Part shown: positions 9,001 to 33,000 of the stretch, piece by piece
How the letters are laid out: every line of letters starts with the position of its first letter
Numbering within the stretch: the stretch's first letter is position 1
Assembly (NCBI GenBank): GCA_963843375.1
Contig: CAWJKT010000001.1
Location: 128,001-192,000 of the forward strand
Direction of reading: 5' to 3'
DNA: 64,000 nucleotides
Origin: an uncultured Pseudomonadota bacterium
GTDB taxonomy: Bacteria; Oederibacteriota; Muellerivitia; Muellerivitales; Muellerivitaceae
Program-made: the position numbers

Positions 9001-12000
9001 AACATGGTTTCCTTGTCCTTCAAGGTGTCTCCGCCGCTATTCAACCGTTACGAGGGAGGACAGACCTACGGTCCCCATATCGACAACGCCATCCGTCAAG
9101 CCCCGGACCAGTCAGGGCGACATCTGCGGATGCGCAGCGATCTTTCGGCAACTCTTTTCCTTTCCAACCCAGAGGATTACGATGGCGGCGAGTTGGTAGT
9201 CGAGGATACTTATGGTATCCGACAGGTCAAACTTCCAGCGGGGCACATGGTGCTTTATCCAGCCAGCAGCCTGCATGAGGTGAAAACGGTAACGCGCGGG
9301 ACAAGAATGGCTGCCTTTTTTTGGATCCAAAGCATGGTGCGTGACGAGGGGAAACGAAGCCTTTTAGTGGAACTGGAACTGGCGGTCCAGACGCTTCACC
9401 GCGACCATCCGGACCATCCCTCCCTTGTCCATTTCACGGGTATTTACAATAATCTCCTGAGGCGTTGGGCAGAAGTTTGAGGTTAGAGGGAATGGGTATC
9501 TTTATTTGTTGCCGAAAAGCGGGAAGGTGGCTTAAACTTGTAAGGAATAAAATTAAGGCGATGGAGTTCGCCACAACCGTCTCTTTGAGAGGCCGATGAC
9601 TCCTATCCCCACCTGGGGATAGGAGTTTTTTATTTTGGGGCCAAGGAGGGCCTATGGAAAAATATTTTTTAATTGCCGCCGGAGCAATCCCTGGGGCATT
9701 TTTTCGTTACTGGTTGACTCTATGGTCCGCCAACCAATGGGGTTCTAATTTTGCCTATGGCACCCTCATCATTAATCTCATAGGGTCTTTTATTCTGGGG
9801 TTGTTTTTTCCCCTTTTGGACAAGGGACTTTTCCCCCCTAACGCGCGGTATTTGGTGGCGGTAGGATGGTGTGCCACTTTTACCACCTATTCCACCTTTA
9901 GTTGGGACACTTTCCGATATCTCCAAGAAGGAAACTTGAAATTAGCCGTTTTGAACATTACATTCACATTACTGGGCTGTTTGGTTGCCACTTGGGCCGG
10001 GTTTACCATCGCCAAAGTCCTGTAGGAAAGAGAGAAAAATGGAACTTCAAGGCAAATGCAAGGCGCTTCGGATCTATATTGATGAGGACATCAAATGGCA
10101 TAACCAACTCTTGTACAGGGCCATCGTTGAAAAACTTTTAAACACCGGCCTTGCAGGAGCTACTGTATTTAAAGGTATCGAGGGATATGGATCTTCCGCC
10201 CGAATCCATTCAGCCCAAATTATTGAGATCATGGAAAATCTTCCGGTGATGATCGAAGTTGTGGACATCCCTAAGCAAATTCTAAAAGCTTTGAAAGAAG
10301 TGGAGCCCATGCTTCCCCAACATTGTTTGGTGACGGTGCAGGATATTCAGGTGGTCCATTATCATGTTCCGGTAAAAAAGCATTCCAAAACCAAGAAAAT
10401 AAGTTGAACGTGTAATGTTTTGATTTAAACATCATTGGTAAATCTATTATTTTTGCCCTTTTTAACCCTAAATTCACAAAAGTGGTATATTTGTAATAAC
10501 GATTTTAGTCATAGTGTTTTAGCCATTGGCTAAAACTTTTATAAATATTTGGACATGTTTTACCCTTTGGAAAAAAGTATTTATCTCAAAAAGGGGACAC
10601 CATGAACGGGTCCTTTAAAATTTACATATCCCTTTTACGCAAAAACTTTAAAACGTTTTTTGTGCATTCGAGTTTTTTGTCTTTTTTGTGTCTTTTCTTC
10701 GTTTCTTTCACCGTTGTTCCTTCCGCACAGGCACAGTCACCCCAACTTAAAATCTCAGGTAATGAGGTCGTTAACGCCAGCAGTGGTTGTACGGTCCAAC
10801 TGAAGGGCGTGGACCTGTCCGGGTTGGAATACAGCCCCACCGGGGACACCGGAAGCGGTTATCCCACGACCGTCGTTGACGGCACGACCATGACCAATTA
10901 TGTAGCCATCATCACCGAGGCGATCAACGTATGGCACGCGAACTGTATCCGCCTTCCCATGAATCAGGATTTTTGGTTCGGTGGCTGTGGAAATTCCAAA
11001 GCCTCGGGCGAGAATCAAACGGCCTATAAAGACATGATCCAGGCCGTCGTGAATTATTGCTCCAGTAACAACGCCTATGTCGACTTGGATTTGCACTGGT
11101 CGGGCACCTCGGCCGTCACCACGGCACCTTGCGGAAGCGGATGGGGAACCGCCACCGGCCAAGAACCCATGCCGGACATGAATGCGGTGACATTTTGGTC
11201 CTCTGTGGCCTCCACTTACGCGAATAATTCAGCGGTCATGTTCGACCTTTATAACGAACCTTACGATCCAAGCGGAGACGACACCACATTTTGGGACGTC
11301 TGGCGCAATGGAGGATCCACGGGATCCGCTCCCGCCACCACGCCGGGACTCCAGGCACTGCTGACGGCGGTCCGTAACGCGGGAGCTAACAATATCGTGG
11401 TGGCGGGAGGCTTGAACTGGGCTTTTGACTTGAGGGGTGTCGTCGGCCAGGAAACAGGCAGCACCACGGCCTACGCCCTGACCGACACCGGTTCGGGTTA
11501 CGGGGTGCTTTATTCCTCCCATTGTTATTCAAGCAAAGGTTACACGGTGGGAAGCGGATGGGATCCCTATGTGACAATCGCCACTTCCACCGTACCCGTC
11601 ATCATTGAGGAATTTGGAGCCCAATCATCTGACCCCGCCGGTTGGGACAGCTCTGCCATCAGTTGGATTGAGGGAAACAACGATAAGAGTTACGTTTATG
11701 GGGGAATGGCTTGGAGTTTTACTCCCGACGACTCTCCCGACCTGTTGACGAGTTACACGGGGTTTACCACGACTTCTTATCATGGCGCCCCGGTTTCCAC
11801 TTGGTTGGCCGACCTCTATGAAACACCAACGCCTAATTGCTCAAGTGGCGGGAGTACACCAACTTTCACTTTTACACCCACTTCCACCTTCACAAAAACC
11901 AGTACGCCTAGTTTAACTAATACCCCCTCGAATACGCCTTCCTCAACAACTACATTAACCCGGACGAATAGCCCCACCCCTACTCCCAGCTACACAGCTA

Positions 12001-30000: not shown

Positions 30001-33000
30001 TACACCCCCGATGTCGGTTTCGATGAATAAACAGGTTTCCTCGACAACGGCCCAATCGGGCAATAACTTGACTTACACCCTCAATATCACCGTCTCCGGG
30101 AACAGTGCGCAGAACCTGGTGGTGAATGACACCTTGCCCACGAATGAAACCTTCCTAGGGTTCCTCGCCAGCCCAGCGGGGACGACCACCAATTCCACCG
30201 CGACGGGTCTATTAACCTGGAACCTGCCTTCGCCCCTTGCGGCGGGGAGCTACCAACTGGAATATCAGGCGCAATTGAATAATTTACTCACGGCCGGCAG
30301 TACCCTTATTAATAACGCCCAATTAACCTACCTGGGAGGCGCCCCGGTGACGGCCAGCGTGGGAGTATTGGTGATAGGGCAATACACGGTCAAAATCGGG
30401 GTCTATAACGAGGCGGGAGAATTGGTGGATACGATCCTTACGGAACAACTCTCCCAACCTATCGATAATATTGTGCTCCAATCCAGTAATGCCATCACCA
30501 GTTTGAACGGGCCCAATAATGCTGTGACGATTTATTACGACAATAGCCCCTTGGGGAGTTGGAATGGGACGAATTCCAATGGAAGCCTGGCTTCCAACGG
30601 GGCCTATTACGTGAAGGTGGACAGCATCAGTTCTATGGGAACCGAAGTGAGCACGACGCAGCAGGTGATGGTCAACCGGACGCTTTATACGTCGACGATC
30701 CTGATTTACAACGAGGCAGGGGAAGTGGTGAAACACTTATATGCCTATTCCGATGACCCAGGCCAAGCCGGTGTGGCATCGGTGCAATTATCATCCTCCG
30801 TAATAGAACCGGGTCTCGGCTCAAGCCCGGGTACGCCTAGCGACCTGACAATAACCTTAAGCAATGGAACAACCGAGGTGTGGGACGGGACGAATGACAG
30901 CGGTTCCTTTGTGCAAAGCGGTGAATATTTGGTGGAAGTCCACACGACGGACGGAACTGGCGGGGAAACCACGGTGATAAAAGAAGTATCGGTGGAAGAC
31001 CAAAATACGGCCAAAGGAATGGGAGTAGTGACGGCTTGGCCCAATGTTTTAAACCCTTCCGAAGGTCTGACGACGACTTTTCATACCAACGTATCCATGA
31101 ATTTGACGTTGGAGGTGTCTGTTTACACGGTTGCGGGTGAACTGGTCCACCAGGTGACTGGCGGCACAGGAACCGGCCAAGTGACATGGAATGCTTCCGG
31201 TGTGGCAAGCGGCACCTATTTGGCGGTGGTTCAGGTTTTCAACTCCACTGGCGGGCTAATGGGCCGGGCAAACCCTCAAACTGGCCGTCTTCCATTAACC
31301 TGGTTTTTTCAATGGTAGTTTTTCCTTCAGCCATCCTATAGGCATCGAAGAGTCGGCTAGCAGCTAGGGAACGCTTCCCCCGCCTTGAGATCTCAAATCA
31401 TTTTTAAACAAAAAATTTAAAAGTATCAAAATTAAAAAATTGGAACAATGAAGATTTCCGACAAACCGGACCTTTTGCTTTTTTAGTAAAAGTTTTAGTA
31501 AAATAAAACTTGCTCGGGACACCGGTGGCTTTTGATGTTTTTGAATTTTGACCTTGGGTTCCCGCATCCTAAACTCATCGATTGGAGTTGTTCATGGGTT
31601 CCCACCCTACCATCAAGGATGTCGCCAAAAAAGCTGGAGTCTCCATTACTACCGTTTCATTTGTCCTCAATAAACGATCAAATGTGGTTATCAGCGAGGA
31701 AGTTAAAAAACGGGTTCTCAACGTGGCTCGGGAAATGGATTATCACCCCAGCGCCATGGCGGCGGGGTTGGCCGGGCGGCGGACGCGTAACCTGGGGGTG
31801 GTTTTTTACCAGGAAGATAAGATTATTTCCAACCAGTTTTATTCCTTTGTGATCGAAGGGATGGTTAAAGAAGCCGCGGATAAATATTTCAACCTCCTTT
31901 TTTCTTTCGTAGAAAATGCCTATAACGGTTACCAGAACCTCCCCAAAATCATTCGCGAGAAAAATGTGGATGGGGTTTTATTAATTGGGCGGGTCGAAGC
32001 CGAAATGGTAAAGGACATCCAGGGGCGCCATCTACCCGTGCTGGCCATTGACAACTATCCTTTTCTTAAGTCGATTGACACCATACAGATCGATAACAAG
32101 CAAGGAGGGACGATGGCGGTGGAGCATTTGATCCGATTGGGGCACAAGAATATCGGTCTTTTAAGTATCGCCAAAGGCCGGCCCAGTATCGAAGAAAGAA
32201 AAGAAGGTTGGATAAACGCGCATGCCAAACATGACTTGGCCCCCAATGAGGCTTTTGCCTTTGAGTGCGAGTCCCTGTCGTTCCAAAGCGGGTATGAAAA
32301 GACAAAGGAAGTTTTAAAGAAGAATAAAAAGATAACGGCCCTTTTTTGCGTCAATGATGAAATGGCGGCGGGGGCTTTACGGGCCGCCCATGAAATGGGC
32401 AGGTTGATACCAGCCGATTTAAGTATTGTGGGTTTTGATAACATAACAATGAGCAATTATACGGATCCTCCTTTAACCACCGTGAGCCCGGCGAAGGAAT
32501 ATATGGGAAAATTAGCTGTTTCCAGGGTGCTGGAAATGATCGAAAATAAAGAAACCCCGCCAAAACGGCAGGTAATTCCGGTAGAGCTCATCATTCGGAA
32601 TTCCACCTCCAAACCTTGAGTTTGCCCCAAAACAGGCCAAATGGACGCGGATAGGATGGATTTTCTGAATTTCCAGTGTCCCTCATTTTTAGTTAGAAAA
32701 CCTTTTCATCAATTATTGACGAAGCTCATAGTCACGGCTTGCCATTTCCTGTTAAAAAATGGAAGATAAAGCCCCTATATAACATTCGTTTTGGGAGGAC
32801 CCATGCCCGCCAAAAAAAAGACGAAAACAGAAACAACCTCTTCCAAACCCCCAAACCTAAAATATCCGAAACGGCTAAAGTTTCCCGAAAAGCTCCCGGG
32901 CGGCCTAAGAAAATAGTGGCTCCCAAGTCTCCCCAAATAAGACCTCCAAGAATGTCGCTGAATCGTATCACGGCCCGACAAGTTGTCCGAAACTTCGGGC

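Follow-up and report, generated by a model that had tools for sequence, protein, structure and literature searches.

We tentatively propose that at least one of four GT-C glycosyltransferases encoded at a single locus glycosylates the secreted proteins encoded next to it; that the whole GT-C expansion of this genome serves threonine-rich linkers appears improbable. The locus covers positions 10602-31318 of the window, by which we mean the whole analyzed stretch of 64,000 nucleotides, from the metagenome-assembled genome (MAG) of an uncultured soil bacterium (4.05 Mb, 80% complete). Judged from sequence, its four inner-membrane GT-C genes lie between the cargo genes as two divergent operons, and the three cargo proteins (two GH5 cellulases and a DUF11/Ig-like protein) are predicted to be Sec-exported and T9SS-type-tagged, with functional domains held 340-640 stalk residues apart. 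The initial annotation had described four GT-C genes between two CTD cellulases and a 1420-aa CTD protein, and we recovered exactly this layout:

10602..14114, + strand: P0001, GH5 endoglucanase with stalk and C-terminal sorting domain (CTD) (PF00150, TIGR04183)
14387..17806, + strand: P0002, second GH5-CTD cellulase with the architecture of P0001 (PF00150 1.6e-22, TIGR04183 26.7 bits)
17875..19938, - strand: P0003, TMEM260-type GT-C glycosyltransferase (PF11028 9.3e-20)
19931..22309, - strand: P0004, divergent YfhO-type GT-C glycosyltransferase (homologues with PF09586; model fold)
22558..24474, + strand: P0005, TMTC-like GT-C membrane domain (residues ~10-445) and periplasmic TPR tail (TPR families, model fold)
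24500..26653, + strand: P0006, P0005 paralogue with a longer TPR tail (phmmer 3e-112 to the N-terminal part of P0005; TPR families)
27038..31318, + strand: P0007, surface protein of 1420-1426 aa (PF13860 3.7e-13, PF01345 7.5e-9)

Cargo proteins and their threonine stalks

In P0001, the GH5 domain (PF00150, 1.5e-26 at residues 104-371) is followed first by a (Thr-x)n stalk of ~400 residues, then by a beta-rich domain and finally by a C-terminal sorting domain of T9SS type A, which scores 26.6 bits against TIGR04183 (cut-off 23; residues 1086-1168) and 24.4 bits against PF18962, under the cut-off of 27. Its T+S+P window reaches 0.78, with 400 residues covered. P0002 matches P0001 at 66% overall (BLASTP), and the C-terminal ~450 residues, from P0001 residue ~720 on, are identical; translation of P0002 probably begins at the ATG at residue 44, immediately ahead of the signal peptide. 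P0007 is preceded by a promoter-like site at 26964-26992 and consists of a Cys-rich N-terminus, a (Thr-x)n stalk of ~640 residues, a DUF11 domain, Ig-like domains of the FlgD_ig type and, at the end, a weak T9SS-type tail. This tail scores 24.6 bits for CHU_C and 19.7 bits for PF18962, both under cut-off, and P0007 belongs to the genome-specific CTD set defined by an iterated model.

That model was built from the 22 Pfam Por_Secre_tail places in the genome and applied to our own ORF calls for the whole MAG (simple caller; 3801 ORFs of at least 80 aa, of which 2882 have at least 150 aa). A window with at least 70% T+S+P over 40 residues is present in 63 of 81 CTD proteins, compared with 41 of the 2801 remaining proteins (Fisher test, odds ratio 236, p 2e-84). 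This independent recount agrees with the earlier statement that such linkers are typical of CTD proteins (51/71 against 35/2794). The enrichment is not produced by drift of the CTD model, because the Pfam-seeded CTD proteins of at least 150 aa alone give 17 of 21. Several of the 41 non-CTD proteins with such a window are contig-end fragments or neighbors of CTD genes.

Stalks have a median length of 214 residues per CTD protein (maximum 1102) and add up to 20,095 residues, or 1.7% of all called residues. They are composed of 44% T, 14% P, 12% S and 8% N, and their alternation is strict: the probability of Thr at i+2, given Thr at i, is 0.79, compared with 0.11 at i+1. All four Thr codons are in use, and just two DNA tandem arrays occur within the 20.7 kb of the locus. 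Strict periodicity combined with full codon usage and little DNA repeat therefore indicates selection on the protein pattern.

The four GT-C enzymes

P0003, whose gene overlaps that of P0004 by 8 bases, combines a Rossmann-like region with a TPR tail at its C-terminus. It aligns with the solved human TMEM260 (PDB 9rql) with an E value of 3e-20 over residues 13-451, and shares with it the GT-C core, the Rossmann-like region that holds the catalytic Asp, as well as a TPR domain at the C-terminus. Four of the six human residues that mutagenesis marks as essential or important are retained: D36, H51, R238 and D404 correspond to human D52, H67, R264 and D441, the last being the catalytic base. In the pairwise alignment, Y267 and R355 lack a conserved counterpart. 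The human enzyme is reported to add one mannose to a defined IPT-domain sequon (PMC10214176; bioRxiv 10.64898/2026.03.17.711096). Its TPR domain is described as binding an extended peptide (bioRxiv 10.64898/2026.03.17.711096). In both sources, bacterial homologues receive only passing mention (PMC10214176; bioRxiv 10.64898/2026.03.17.711096).

P0004 is a multi-pass protein with a C-terminal beta-sandwich and a final TM helix. It matched no Pfam family, the YfhO model included, but PF09586 is present in many of its listed homologues. The best Foldseek matches of its structural model (pLDDT 90.4) are AftD, PglB, EmbA/B/C, STT3, AftA and ArnT.

P0005 is divergent from P0004, with a gap of 248 bases. 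In Pfam, only its TPR families match, and none covers the membrane part. It has more than 5218 homologues, many of them labelled "protein O-mannosyl-transferase" by JGI, and residues D46 and D47 are invariant. Its model (pLDDT 88.0) aligns with AglB, Pmt1-Pmt2, Pmt4 and ArnT (VIA-align Z 19.7, 18.9, 18.4 and 17.2). P0006 shares 49% identity with P0005 in the membrane part, has an orthologue in the same-genus genome G021 (74% identity over 717 aa), and carries an N-terminal extension that is weakly HTH-like (HTH_35, E 3.3e-4, under cut-off).

Both proteins have the architecture described for animal TMTC1-4 (PMC7801869), an N-terminal GT-C membrane domain followed by a non-cytoplasmic C-terminal TPR region. 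They also share with these the DD of the first loop, RxD (R166/D168), the M4 Lys (K210) and (D/E)RxxY (D365-R366-x-x-Y369), but not the M4 Glu. Neither matched the Pfam model TMTC_DUF1736, even at E<=10. As a lead, a search with a language model pointed to a chordate TMTC_DUF1736 cluster (score 0.91), while the nearest named clusters by features were of bacterial PMT_2 type. Based on the P0003-9rql alignment and the modelled GT-C folds of P0004 and P0005, the earlier assignment of the locus enzymes to TMEM260- and TMTC-type GT-C proteins holds.

GT-C genes in the genome and their neighborhood

The MAG contains about 64 GT-C genes, in line with the previously noted set of about 40 with a family row and some 20 unassigned paralogues. 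PMT_2 matches at 39 places with E<=0.01 (31 above cut-off), PMT at 8 places that mostly coincide with PMT_2 genes, the TMEM260-like family at 9 places in 8 genes, and YfhO at 11 places; 12 genes belong to the P0004-type group of paralogues and two to the TMTC-like family. In total, 28 of the 64 form tandem clusters with one another. GT2, GT4 and methyltransferase genes occur near GT-C genes in a pattern as in glycan loci, including donor-type GT2 genes 2-6 genes away (all matches under curated cut-offs). A GtrA-type flippase was not found in this 80% complete genome. The window itself carries a second glycosylation cluster outside the locus under study, identified by a Pfam scan of the window ORFs:

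38971..55125, strand not assigned: four YfhO-like genes, an FkbM methyltransferase, a GT2, an LPG_synthase_TM protein, a GT4 and a PMT_2 gene (contig position 181617)

Genome-wide, GT-C genes are not concentrated around the cargo. Only 4 of 64 adjoin stalk/CTD genes, compared with 3.0 expected for random long genes (p 0.37), and 8 of 64 lie at most two genes away (null 6.4, p 0.30); PMT_2 genes adjoin cargo in 0 of 39 cases. Among same-family relatives, 8 of 33 TMTC-like genes are direct neighbors of cargo, compared with 16 of 205 control genes (p 0.0086); these counts include non-independent paralogues and orthologues. A P0006-like gene lies beside a P0007-like protein in four genera (G021, G055, G059 and G033). 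No excess was seen in relatives for P0004-like (YfhO-like) genes (1/22 against 16/205) or TMEM260-like genes (1/43 against 9/241).

The locus is retained in G021, and in another genus (L016) a P0004-like/P0003-like pair is flanked by CTD-stalk proteins. The stretch from the GATase/CrcB/DUF190 genes to the LacI/GH57/ROK genes varies in content between genera; the locus is a variable island.

Counts across the phylum

Among 61 genomes of the phylum, PMT_2 is the sole GT-C family whose count tracks stalk load (Spearman 0.63; 0.54, p 0.02, over 18 family medians). For TMEM260-like, TMTC-like and YfhO-like counts, rho was -0.03, 0.07 and 0.31 over the 61 genomes and -0.19, -0.28 and 0.31 over family medians, none of the latter significant. 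All three types are also found in families without Thr linkers. The 17 genomes with 0-1 stalk-pattern matches contain 2-16 TMEM260-like and 3-46 PMT_2 matches. In one family, five genomes combine 16-46 PMT_2 matches with no linker-pattern match and 1-5 CTD matches. TMTC-like genes occur in all six genomes of family f4. In family f10, stalks are numerous and CTD matches range from 13 to 68, yet there are no YfhO-like and 0-1 TMEM260-like matches.

Comparison with known systems

In streptococci, the GT2 enzymes GtrB and PgfS are described as making an undecaprenyl-phosphate sugar, which the YfhO-family GT-C enzymes PgtC2 and PgfM1, respectively, attach outside the membrane to disordered, Ser/Thr-rich segments of exported proteins (PMC12041528). 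The Pgf cluster encodes its own substrates, adhesins with Ser/Thr-rich regions, and glycosylation protects some substrates from proteolysis (PMC12041528). P0004 resembles these enzymes as a YfhO-type GT-C protein adjoining proteins with Thr-rich tracts. However, streptococci are Gram-positive, have between one and three enzymes of this kind, and their poly-Ser/Thr tracts are short (PMC12041528), whereas the organism studied here has two membranes and T9SS-type cargo, some 15 YfhO-like genes, and strictly Thr-x-alternating tracts that run to hundreds of residues. In addition, P0004 fails to match the Pfam YfhO model, and its counterparts in relatives are cargo-adjacent in just 1 of 22 cases.

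Another parallel is Caldicellulosiruptor bescii, where the PMT-type (GT39) gene Cbes_1864 lies near celA and other cellulase genes with alternating Thr/Pro linkers. It is reported to be required for all detectable glycosylation of secreted enzymes, cellulases with Thr-Pro linkers included, and its deletion abolished glycosylation and increased cleavage (PMC6151902). Both systems have cellulases with Thr-rich linkers, glycosylated in C. bescii (PMC6151902) and proposed to be so here. Only one GT39 gene is present in C. bescii (PMC6151902), whereas this genome has 31-39 PMT_2 genes, none beside cargo, and its cellulase genes are neighbored by those of TMEM260-type, TMTC-like and YfhO-type GT-C enzymes. 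Actinobacterial Pmt/Ppm1 (PMC5882110) and Cellulomonas fimi (as cited in PMC6151902) appear comparable.

Proposed mechanism and alternative explanations

We infer the following route as the likeliest, including donor, acceptor, timing and glycosylation as such. GT2 enzymes of PgfS/ArnC/AglJ type, encoded elsewhere, would charge polyprenyl phosphate with a sugar, and the lipid-linked sugar would flip to the periplasmic face. There, at least the TPR-tailed enzymes of the locus would move it to Thr hydroxyls in extended segments of the adjacent cargo, after Sec translocation and ahead of export via an SprA-like pore. P0005 and P0006, both TMTC-like, are candidate transferases, and so perhaps is the TMEM260-type P0003 with P0004 as partner; by analogy with human TMEM260, their TPR tails may hold the extended peptide. 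The sugars could stiffen the stalk and block proteases, as in C. bescii and streptococci. Since few of the ~64 GT-C genes are tied to stalked proteins by gene order, sugar-coating of the stalks is only plausible. The initial proposal that the GT-C expansion O-glycosylates linkers therefore stands in part: the precedents, the PMT_2 correlation and the TMTC-like adjacency favor it, while genome-wide proximity, the TMEM260-, TMTC- and YfhO-like counts and the PMT_2-rich family without stalks speak against it.

A credible but somewhat doubtful alternative is that GT-C genes, these four included, decorate envelope glycans or lipids (LPS-like, exopolysaccharide, glycolipid or peptidoglycan-linked polymers). 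The CTD neighborhood would then be a by-product of an island collecting accessory surface genes, and the stalks unglycosylated spacers or targets of other enzymes. The missing genome-wide co-location with cargo agrees with this, as do the GT-C expansions in families that lack stalks and have few CTD proteins, the tandem clusters near GT2, GT4 and methyltransferase genes, the variable island content and the reported action of Bacillus and Listeria YfhO homologues on teichoic acids (PMC12041528). It fits less well that the TPR tails of P0003, P0005 and P0006 are peptide-binding modules in the one solved relative, that the P0006-like/P0007-like pair recurs in four genera with enriched TMTC-like adjacency (p 0.009), and that PMT_2 counts track stalk load. 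Long extracellular stalks would also be expected to need protection, as demonstrated for C. bescii CelA (PMC6151902).

Glycosylation of stalks by the locus enzymes is further challenged by the animal enzymes, since TMTC and TMEM260 act on specific sites of folded-domain precursors and not on mucin-like tracts: human TMEM260 recognizes a long sequon in IPT-domain strands, and the reported substrates of TMTC1-4 are cadherin domains (PMC7801869). TMEM260-type and TMTC-like enzymes might thus modify single defined sites in precursors of Ig-like, DUF11 or cadherin-like domains, with any glycosylation of (Thr-x)n tracts left to PMT_2 (GT39-like) enzymes elsewhere. We regard this as unlikely. P0007 and its relatives do carry DUF11 and FlgD_ig Ig-like domains, stalk load follows PMT_2 counts only, and stalk-free families contain TMEM260-like and TMTC-like genes, but no PMT_2 gene lies beside cargo in this genome. 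Less probable still, the alternating tracts may themselves be functional surfaces, such as flat Thr ladders for binding cellulose or another substrate of crystalline or polymeric nature, or capsule-crossing spacers, in either case without need for glycosylation. The i/i+2 periodicity, kept with four codons and little DNA repeat, and tract lengths far beyond those of usual enzyme linkers would suit such a role. However, the tracts occur on CTD proteins of many kinds beyond cellulases, the alternating Thr-Pro linkers of C. bescii carry sugars (PMC6151902), and a surface function would be compatible with glycosylation.

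Gene organization of the cellulase and glycosyltransferase locus

Seven genes lie within positions 10602-31318 of the window. They follow the order described in the initial annotation: two GH5 cellulases carrying a T9SS-type C-terminal sorting domain (CTD) and the large protein P0007 flank four genes encoding membrane glycosyltransferases of the GT-C fold class.

Genes of the locus (window coordinates, strand, product)
10602-14114, +, P0001: GH5 (PF00150, 1.5e-26); signal peptide, Thr-rich tract, beta-rich domain, T9SS type A tail
14387-17806, +, P0002: GH5 (PF00150, 1.6e-22); signal peptide, Thr-rich tract, beta-rich domain, T9SS type A tail
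17875-19938, -, P0003: TMEM260-like (PF11028, 9.3e-20); TPR tail
19931-22309, -, P0004: multi-pass protein with no Pfam hit of its own; 8-base overlap with P0003
22558-24474, +, P0005: multi-pass protein with TPR tail; divergent from P0004
24500-26653, +, P0006: multi-pass protein with TPR tail; divergent from P0004
27038-31318, +, P0007: Cys-rich N-terminal part, Thr-rich tract of ~640 residues, DUF11, FlgD_ig domains, weak T9SS-type tail

At the C termini of P0001 and P0002, the T9SS type A model TIGR04183 scored 26.6 and 26.7 bits, over its cut-off of 23, and PF18962 reached 24.4 bits, under its cut-off of 27. The tail of P0007 gave 19.7 bits with PF18962 and 24.6 bits with CHU_C, each under 27, and the protein is included in the iterated CTD model that we built for this genome.

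The two cellulases share ~45% identity in the GH5 domain. Their last ~450 residues, comprising the end of the stalk, the beta domain and the CTD, are identical (12760-14114 and 16450-17806), reflecting either recent gene conversion between the tandem genes or assembly collapse. P0001 also contains a tandem repeat at 12570-13126, with a unit of 252 bases (2.2 copies, 92% matches).

A σ70-like site (TTGAAA, 17 nt, TATGAT; 10/12 matches) is located at 26964-26992, 46 bases upstream of the P0007 start, so that P0007 is probably transcribed from its own promoter and not by read-through from P0006. It was the only notable site in a promoter and terminator scan of 13900-31800, which overall stayed below shuffled sequences (8 vs 16.8 and 19 vs 27.2, respectively).

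The four membrane proteins are GT-C enzymes

P0003 matches PF11028 with 71.6 bits (cut-off 24.2), and its residues 13-451 align to residues 29-488 of human TMEM260 (9rql_A; E 3e-20), covering the GT-C core and the Rossmann-like region. Mutagenesis of the human enzyme has singled out D52, H67, R264, Y267, R355 and the catalytic base D441 as important. In this pairwise alignment, in which local shifts are possible, D52, H67, R264 and D441 find counterparts in D36, H51, R238 and D404 of P0003, whereas Y267 and R355 face D241 and N320 and are unmatched. The C-terminal part carries TPR repeats, with TPR_2 at residues 638-671 (1.2e-12) and matches to further TPR models. On these matches, P0003 is a putative glycosyltransferase of the TMEM260 type.

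PDB sequence searches with P0004, the membrane part of P0005 and our profiles A1 and A2 returned TPR or chance matches only, so fold searches were needed. The P0004 model (pLDDT 90.4) gave 27 Foldseek matches at E<=0.001; those listed are all GT-C enzymes, among them AftD, PglB, EmbA/B/C, STT3, AftA and ArnT (E 7e-7 to 3e-4). PF09586 (YfhO) does not match P0004 itself at E<=10, and the protein is absent from the 11 YfhO places of the genome; the family is present in many of the listed P0004 homologues, and P0004 paralogues match the last ~80 positions of the YfhO model.

For P0005 (model pLDDT 88), Foldseek with the whole model found TPR proteins only. VIA-align over all cluster representatives aligned residues ~10-445 to AglB (Z 19.7; 316 aligned, rmsd 4.7), Pmt1-Pmt2 (Z 18.9), Pmt4 (Z 18.4) and ArnT (Z 17.2); the TPR matches, spanning residues 418-638, come after this GT-C fold. 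Relatives of the human O-mannosyltransferases TMEM260 and TMTC1-4 are very common in bacteria; the P0005 membrane part alone has more than 5218 homologues, many of them named "protein O-mannosyl-transferase" by JGI. This part matches no Pfam family at E<=10; the P0006 membrane part gives only the unrelated, chance-level DUF7649 (E 0.063) and TMEM120A-B (E 0.18) at this threshold. PF08409 (TMTC_DUF1736) was found at E<=10 neither in P0005 nor in P0006, and in 0 of the 120 homologues listed.

Of the TMTC motifs M1-M7, as defined in the accessible text of PMC7801869, the M1 DD motif corresponds to D46/D47 of P0005 in the first outside loop, both invariant in 49 homologues. The other positions were assigned by eye, with no TMTC sequence aligned: R166/D168 for M3 (RxD), the invariant K210 for M4 (KE(T/Q)xxT), where the following Glu is missing, and D365-R366-x-x-Y369 for M7 (ERxxY), with Asp replacing Glu. 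"TMTC-like" therefore names the architecture of P0005 and P0006, not membership in the TMTC family. Taken together, the TMEM260 match of P0003, the folds of P0004 and P0005 and the motifs identify all four membrane proteins of the locus as GT-C enzymes, in agreement with the class assigned previously.

P0006 has an N-terminal extension of ~45 residues ahead of the first TM helix (24500-24640), which resembles a helix-turn-helix (HTH_35, E 3.3e-4; HTH_26, E 0.004; both under cut-off). A full-length orthologue in the same-genus genome G021 is 74% identical across 717 aa. JGI annotates one homologue (P0036) as a TPR protein that has an XRE-family HTH.

Genome-wide, we counted 39 PMT_2 places at E<=0.01 (31 above cut-off), 8 PMT places mostly in the same genes, 9 TMEM260-like places in 8 genes, and 11 YfhO places. 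The P0004 paralogue family numbers 12 genes and the TMTC-like family 2. The union of all these sets comprises 64 genes, 28 of which are arranged in tandem groups of 2 to 6.

CTD proteins carry alternating Thr-x stalks

The genome assembly (4.05 Mb, 32 contigs, 80% complete, 4% contamination) yielded 3801 ORFs of at least 80 aa with our own crude caller, 2882 of them of at least 150 aa. Starting from 22 Pfam Por_Secre_tail places, the CTD model was iterated to 81 proteins of at least 150 aa. A stalk, scored as 40 consecutive residues of which at least 70% are T, S or P, is present in 63 of these 81 proteins compared with 41 of the remaining 2801 (odds ratio 236, p 2e-84), and in 17/21 of the Pfam-seeded CTD proteins alone. 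This independent recount reproduces the enrichment of such linkers reported previously (51/71 vs 35/2794).

The stalks differ from ordinary PT linkers in being strictly alternating Thr-x sequences, a sharper pattern than first described. In the tracts of this genome (examples at 11900-13200 and 28200-30100), a Thr at position i is followed by Thr at i+2 with a probability of 0.79 and at i+1 with 0.11; their composition is 44% T, 14% P, 12% S, 8% N and 6% A. They amount to 20,095 residues, or 1.7% of all called residues, with a median of 214 and a maximum of 1102 residues per CTD protein. Thr within the tracts is encoded by all four codons and the 20.7-kb locus contains only two DNA tandem arrays, indicating that the Thr-x pattern is kept at the protein level. 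The use of all codons points to the (Thr-x)n pattern, not the composition, as the target of selection.

GT-C genes are not generally located next to cargo genes in this genome

Among the 64 GT-C genes, 4 are adjacent to a gene for a stalk protein, compared with 3.0 expected for random genes of at least 400 aa (p 0.37), and 8 have a stalk or CTD gene no more than two genes away (null 6.4, p 0.30). Split by family, adjacency is seen in 0/39 for PMT_2, 2/8 for TMEM260-like, 1/10 for YfhO, 0/5 for further members of the P0004 family and 1/2 for TMTC-like genes. Pilins were considered as an alternative substrate and rejected for this genome: only 6 of its ORFs have a prepilin-like N-terminal motif, and 0/64 GT-C genes have such an ORF among their three nearest genes on either side.

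Five GT2 proteins encoded 2-6 genes from GT-C genes best match the donor-type enzymes PgfS, ArnC, AglJ, PpgS or DPhHxTase (dolichyl-phosphate hexose transferase), with E values of 7e-35 to 1e-12 and scores far under the equivalog cut-offs. A role of the GT2 gene within the window (49923-50969) as the donor synthase is not supported: a PDB match is lacking, and in NCBIfam the protein comes closest to MftF and EpsD types, not to polyprenyl-phosphate synthases. PF04138, for GtrA-type flippases, the one flippase type searched for, gave 0 matches in this 80%-complete genome.

Stalk load and GT-C families across the phylum

We searched genomes of the phylum at the DNA level for eight Thr codons at alternate positions, a pattern that catches alternating-Thr tracts alone and misses Ser-rich and other linkers. 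It gave 4603 matches in this genome compared with 168 for the reversed control. In the 61 genomes from 18 families, 17 (f4, f5, f12, f14 and f16) have 0-1 matches and the remaining ones 132 to 18,252; these figures are matches, not gene counts, and related genomes are not independent. The maximum belongs to G047 (same family, another genus; 5.0 Mb), which with 14 copies also has the most TMTC-like genes of the sample.

Stalk load was compared with per-genome counts that include the best 50 candidates for PMT_2 and the best 17 for profile A2, high counts therefore meaning "at least". Spearman coefficients over genomes and over the 18 family medians, respectively, are 0.71 and 0.74 for Por_Secre_tail, 0.63 and 0.54 (p 0.02) for PMT_2, 0.31 and 0.31 for YfhO-like (the family-median value not significant), -0.03 and -0.19 for TMEM260-like and 0.07 and -0.28 for TMTC-like genes. 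Hence, stalks accompany CTD cargo throughout the phylum, and PMT_2 alone among the GT-C families follows them, imperfectly.

Two families run against a link between GT-C genes and stalks. The five genomes of f5 (G003, G011, G018, G024, G030) have 0 pattern matches and 1-5 Por_Secre_tail (CTD) matches together with 16-46 PMT_2 and 8-16 TMEM260-like matches; here, the GT-C expansion serves some other purpose. Family f10, by contrast, combines 459-2694 pattern and 13-68 CTD matches with 0 YfhO-like and 0-1 TMEM260-like ones.

TMTC-like genes adjoin P7-like stalk proteins in four genera

G021, a genome of the same genus, retains the locus with 73-77% identity at the DNA level and with additional genes inserted. 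Other genera of the family vary in what lies between the GATase/CrcB/DUF190 and the LacI/GH57/ROK genes; G047 (L016) has a pair of P0004- and P0003-like genes flanked by CTD-stalk proteins. A TMTC-like gene adjoins a counterpart of P0007 (P7-like) in G021, G055 (L021), G059 (L048) and G033 (L036), that is, in four genera.

We compared 31 loci of same-family relatives with 20 control loci on the same contigs, ~50 kb or more away (nearest ~38 kb). TMTC-like genes of at least 400 aa are adjacent to a stalk or CTD gene in 8/33 cases compared with 16/205 in the control (Fisher p 0.0086), and within two genes in 9/33 compared with 25/205 (p 0.031), in tests that count related genes and overstate independence. 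Two further P7-like neighbors are contig-end fragments and were left out of these figures.

The corresponding general rule that GT-C genes adjoin cargo is rejected for the other two types: only 1/22 P0004-like (YfhO-like) genes of the relatives and, in stalk-rich families, 1/43 TMEM260-like genes (9/241 in the control) are adjacent to a stalk or CTD gene. Within three genes, TMEM260-like genes show an excess (10/43 vs 25/241, p 0.024). Nine of the cases lie at a distance of exactly three, and 6 of the 8 loci examined among these nine belong to two conserved blocks of related genomes, so that the excess stems largely from these blocks and does not represent independent events. A conserved block found in both families f13 (L098, L105, L107) and f8 (L120) encodes a small CTD protein (173-226 aa, TSP 0.62-0.65), a one-TM protein of ~315 aa and a protein of ~455 aa, next to a TMEM260-like gene of ~800 aa; it is possibly a second enzyme-cargo module.

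Are the stalks glycosylated?

Glycosylation of the stalks would be plausible, and the mechanism has direct precedents elsewhere. In streptococci, according to the available text of PMC12041528, GtrB with the YfhO-type PgtC2 and PgfS with PgfM1 attach glucose or GalNAc to extracytoplasmic Ser/Thr-rich disordered regions; the Pgf cluster encodes its own adhesin substrates, and glycosylation shields some proteins from cleavage. In C. bescii, celA, whose linkers are "primarily alternating Thr and Pro", has the GT39 gene Cbes_1864 in its vicinity, and deleting Cbes_1864 abolished all detectable glycosylation of secreted enzymes and increased CelA cleavage (excerpts of PMC6151902). The TPR domain of human TMEM260 binds the extended acceptor peptide (bioRxiv 10.64898/2026.03.17.711096, accessible part). 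Bacterial TMTC/TMEM260 homologues receive only passing mentions in the accessible text of the searchable papers, such as "homologues even among prokaryotes" or "distant homologs in bacteria", with the substrate unnamed.

The initial annotation proposed that the GT-C expansion O-glycosylates the Thr/Ser/Pro-rich linkers of T9SS-type cargo. Its linker statistic and enzyme class hold. GT-C and cargo genes show no general co-location in this genome, and only PMT_2 follows the stalk load. For the entire expansion serving the stalks, the evidence is weak and partly contrary, and we consider this broad claim decidedly unlikely. That GT-C genes have envelope-glycan functions unrelated to cargo would suit the f5 genomes, with many such genes and no pattern matches; given the correlation of PMT_2 with stalk load and the neighborhood of the TMTC-like genes, we regard this reading as possible, on balance improbable. 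Turning back to the locus itself, glycosylation of the neighboring CTD cargo by at least one of its GT-C enzymes is a real possibility, somewhat short of probable.

Of the specific leads, the TMTC-like/P7-like pair has the best support. Bacterial TMTC-like GT-C enzymes might be dedicated O-glycosyltransferases of a single T9SS-type surface protein family, the P7-like DUF11/Ig stalk proteins, with the TPR-held Thr-x tract as the acceptor signal, a proposal that we put forward as an unlikely one. If true, P0006 and P0007 would be an enzyme and its substrate, the first such pair among bacterial proteins of the TMTC or TMEM260 type, and this would suggest that O-mannosylation of animal cadherins and IPT domains descends from a bacterial machinery for coating surface proteins. 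The family offers a testable pair, a TMTC-like gene beside a stalked P7-like surface protein in four genera, and tracts with Thr at every second position are an unusually clean candidate acceptor. If present, stalk glycosylation would add a second modification layer to T9SS-type cargo. It would also explain how cellulases on stalks of hundreds of residues persist extracellularly and, as in C. bescii, would bear on expressing such enzymes for biomass conversion. If they are unglycosylated, ~64 GT-C genes in a 4-Mb genome need another purpose.

Other features of the window

A GH2 enzyme at 4948-7848 is broken into three ORFs (4948-5700, 5669-6667 and 6943-7848), the middle one of which is matched by a single 963-aa ORF in a relative (G051, L018); the split is a frameshift or sequencing error. 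A second cluster at 38971-55125 contains four YfhO-like genes and genes for an FkbM methyltransferase, a GT2, an LPG_synthase_TM protein, a GT4 and a PMT_2 protein, and by its gene content looks like a putative locus for envelope-glycan or lipid modification.
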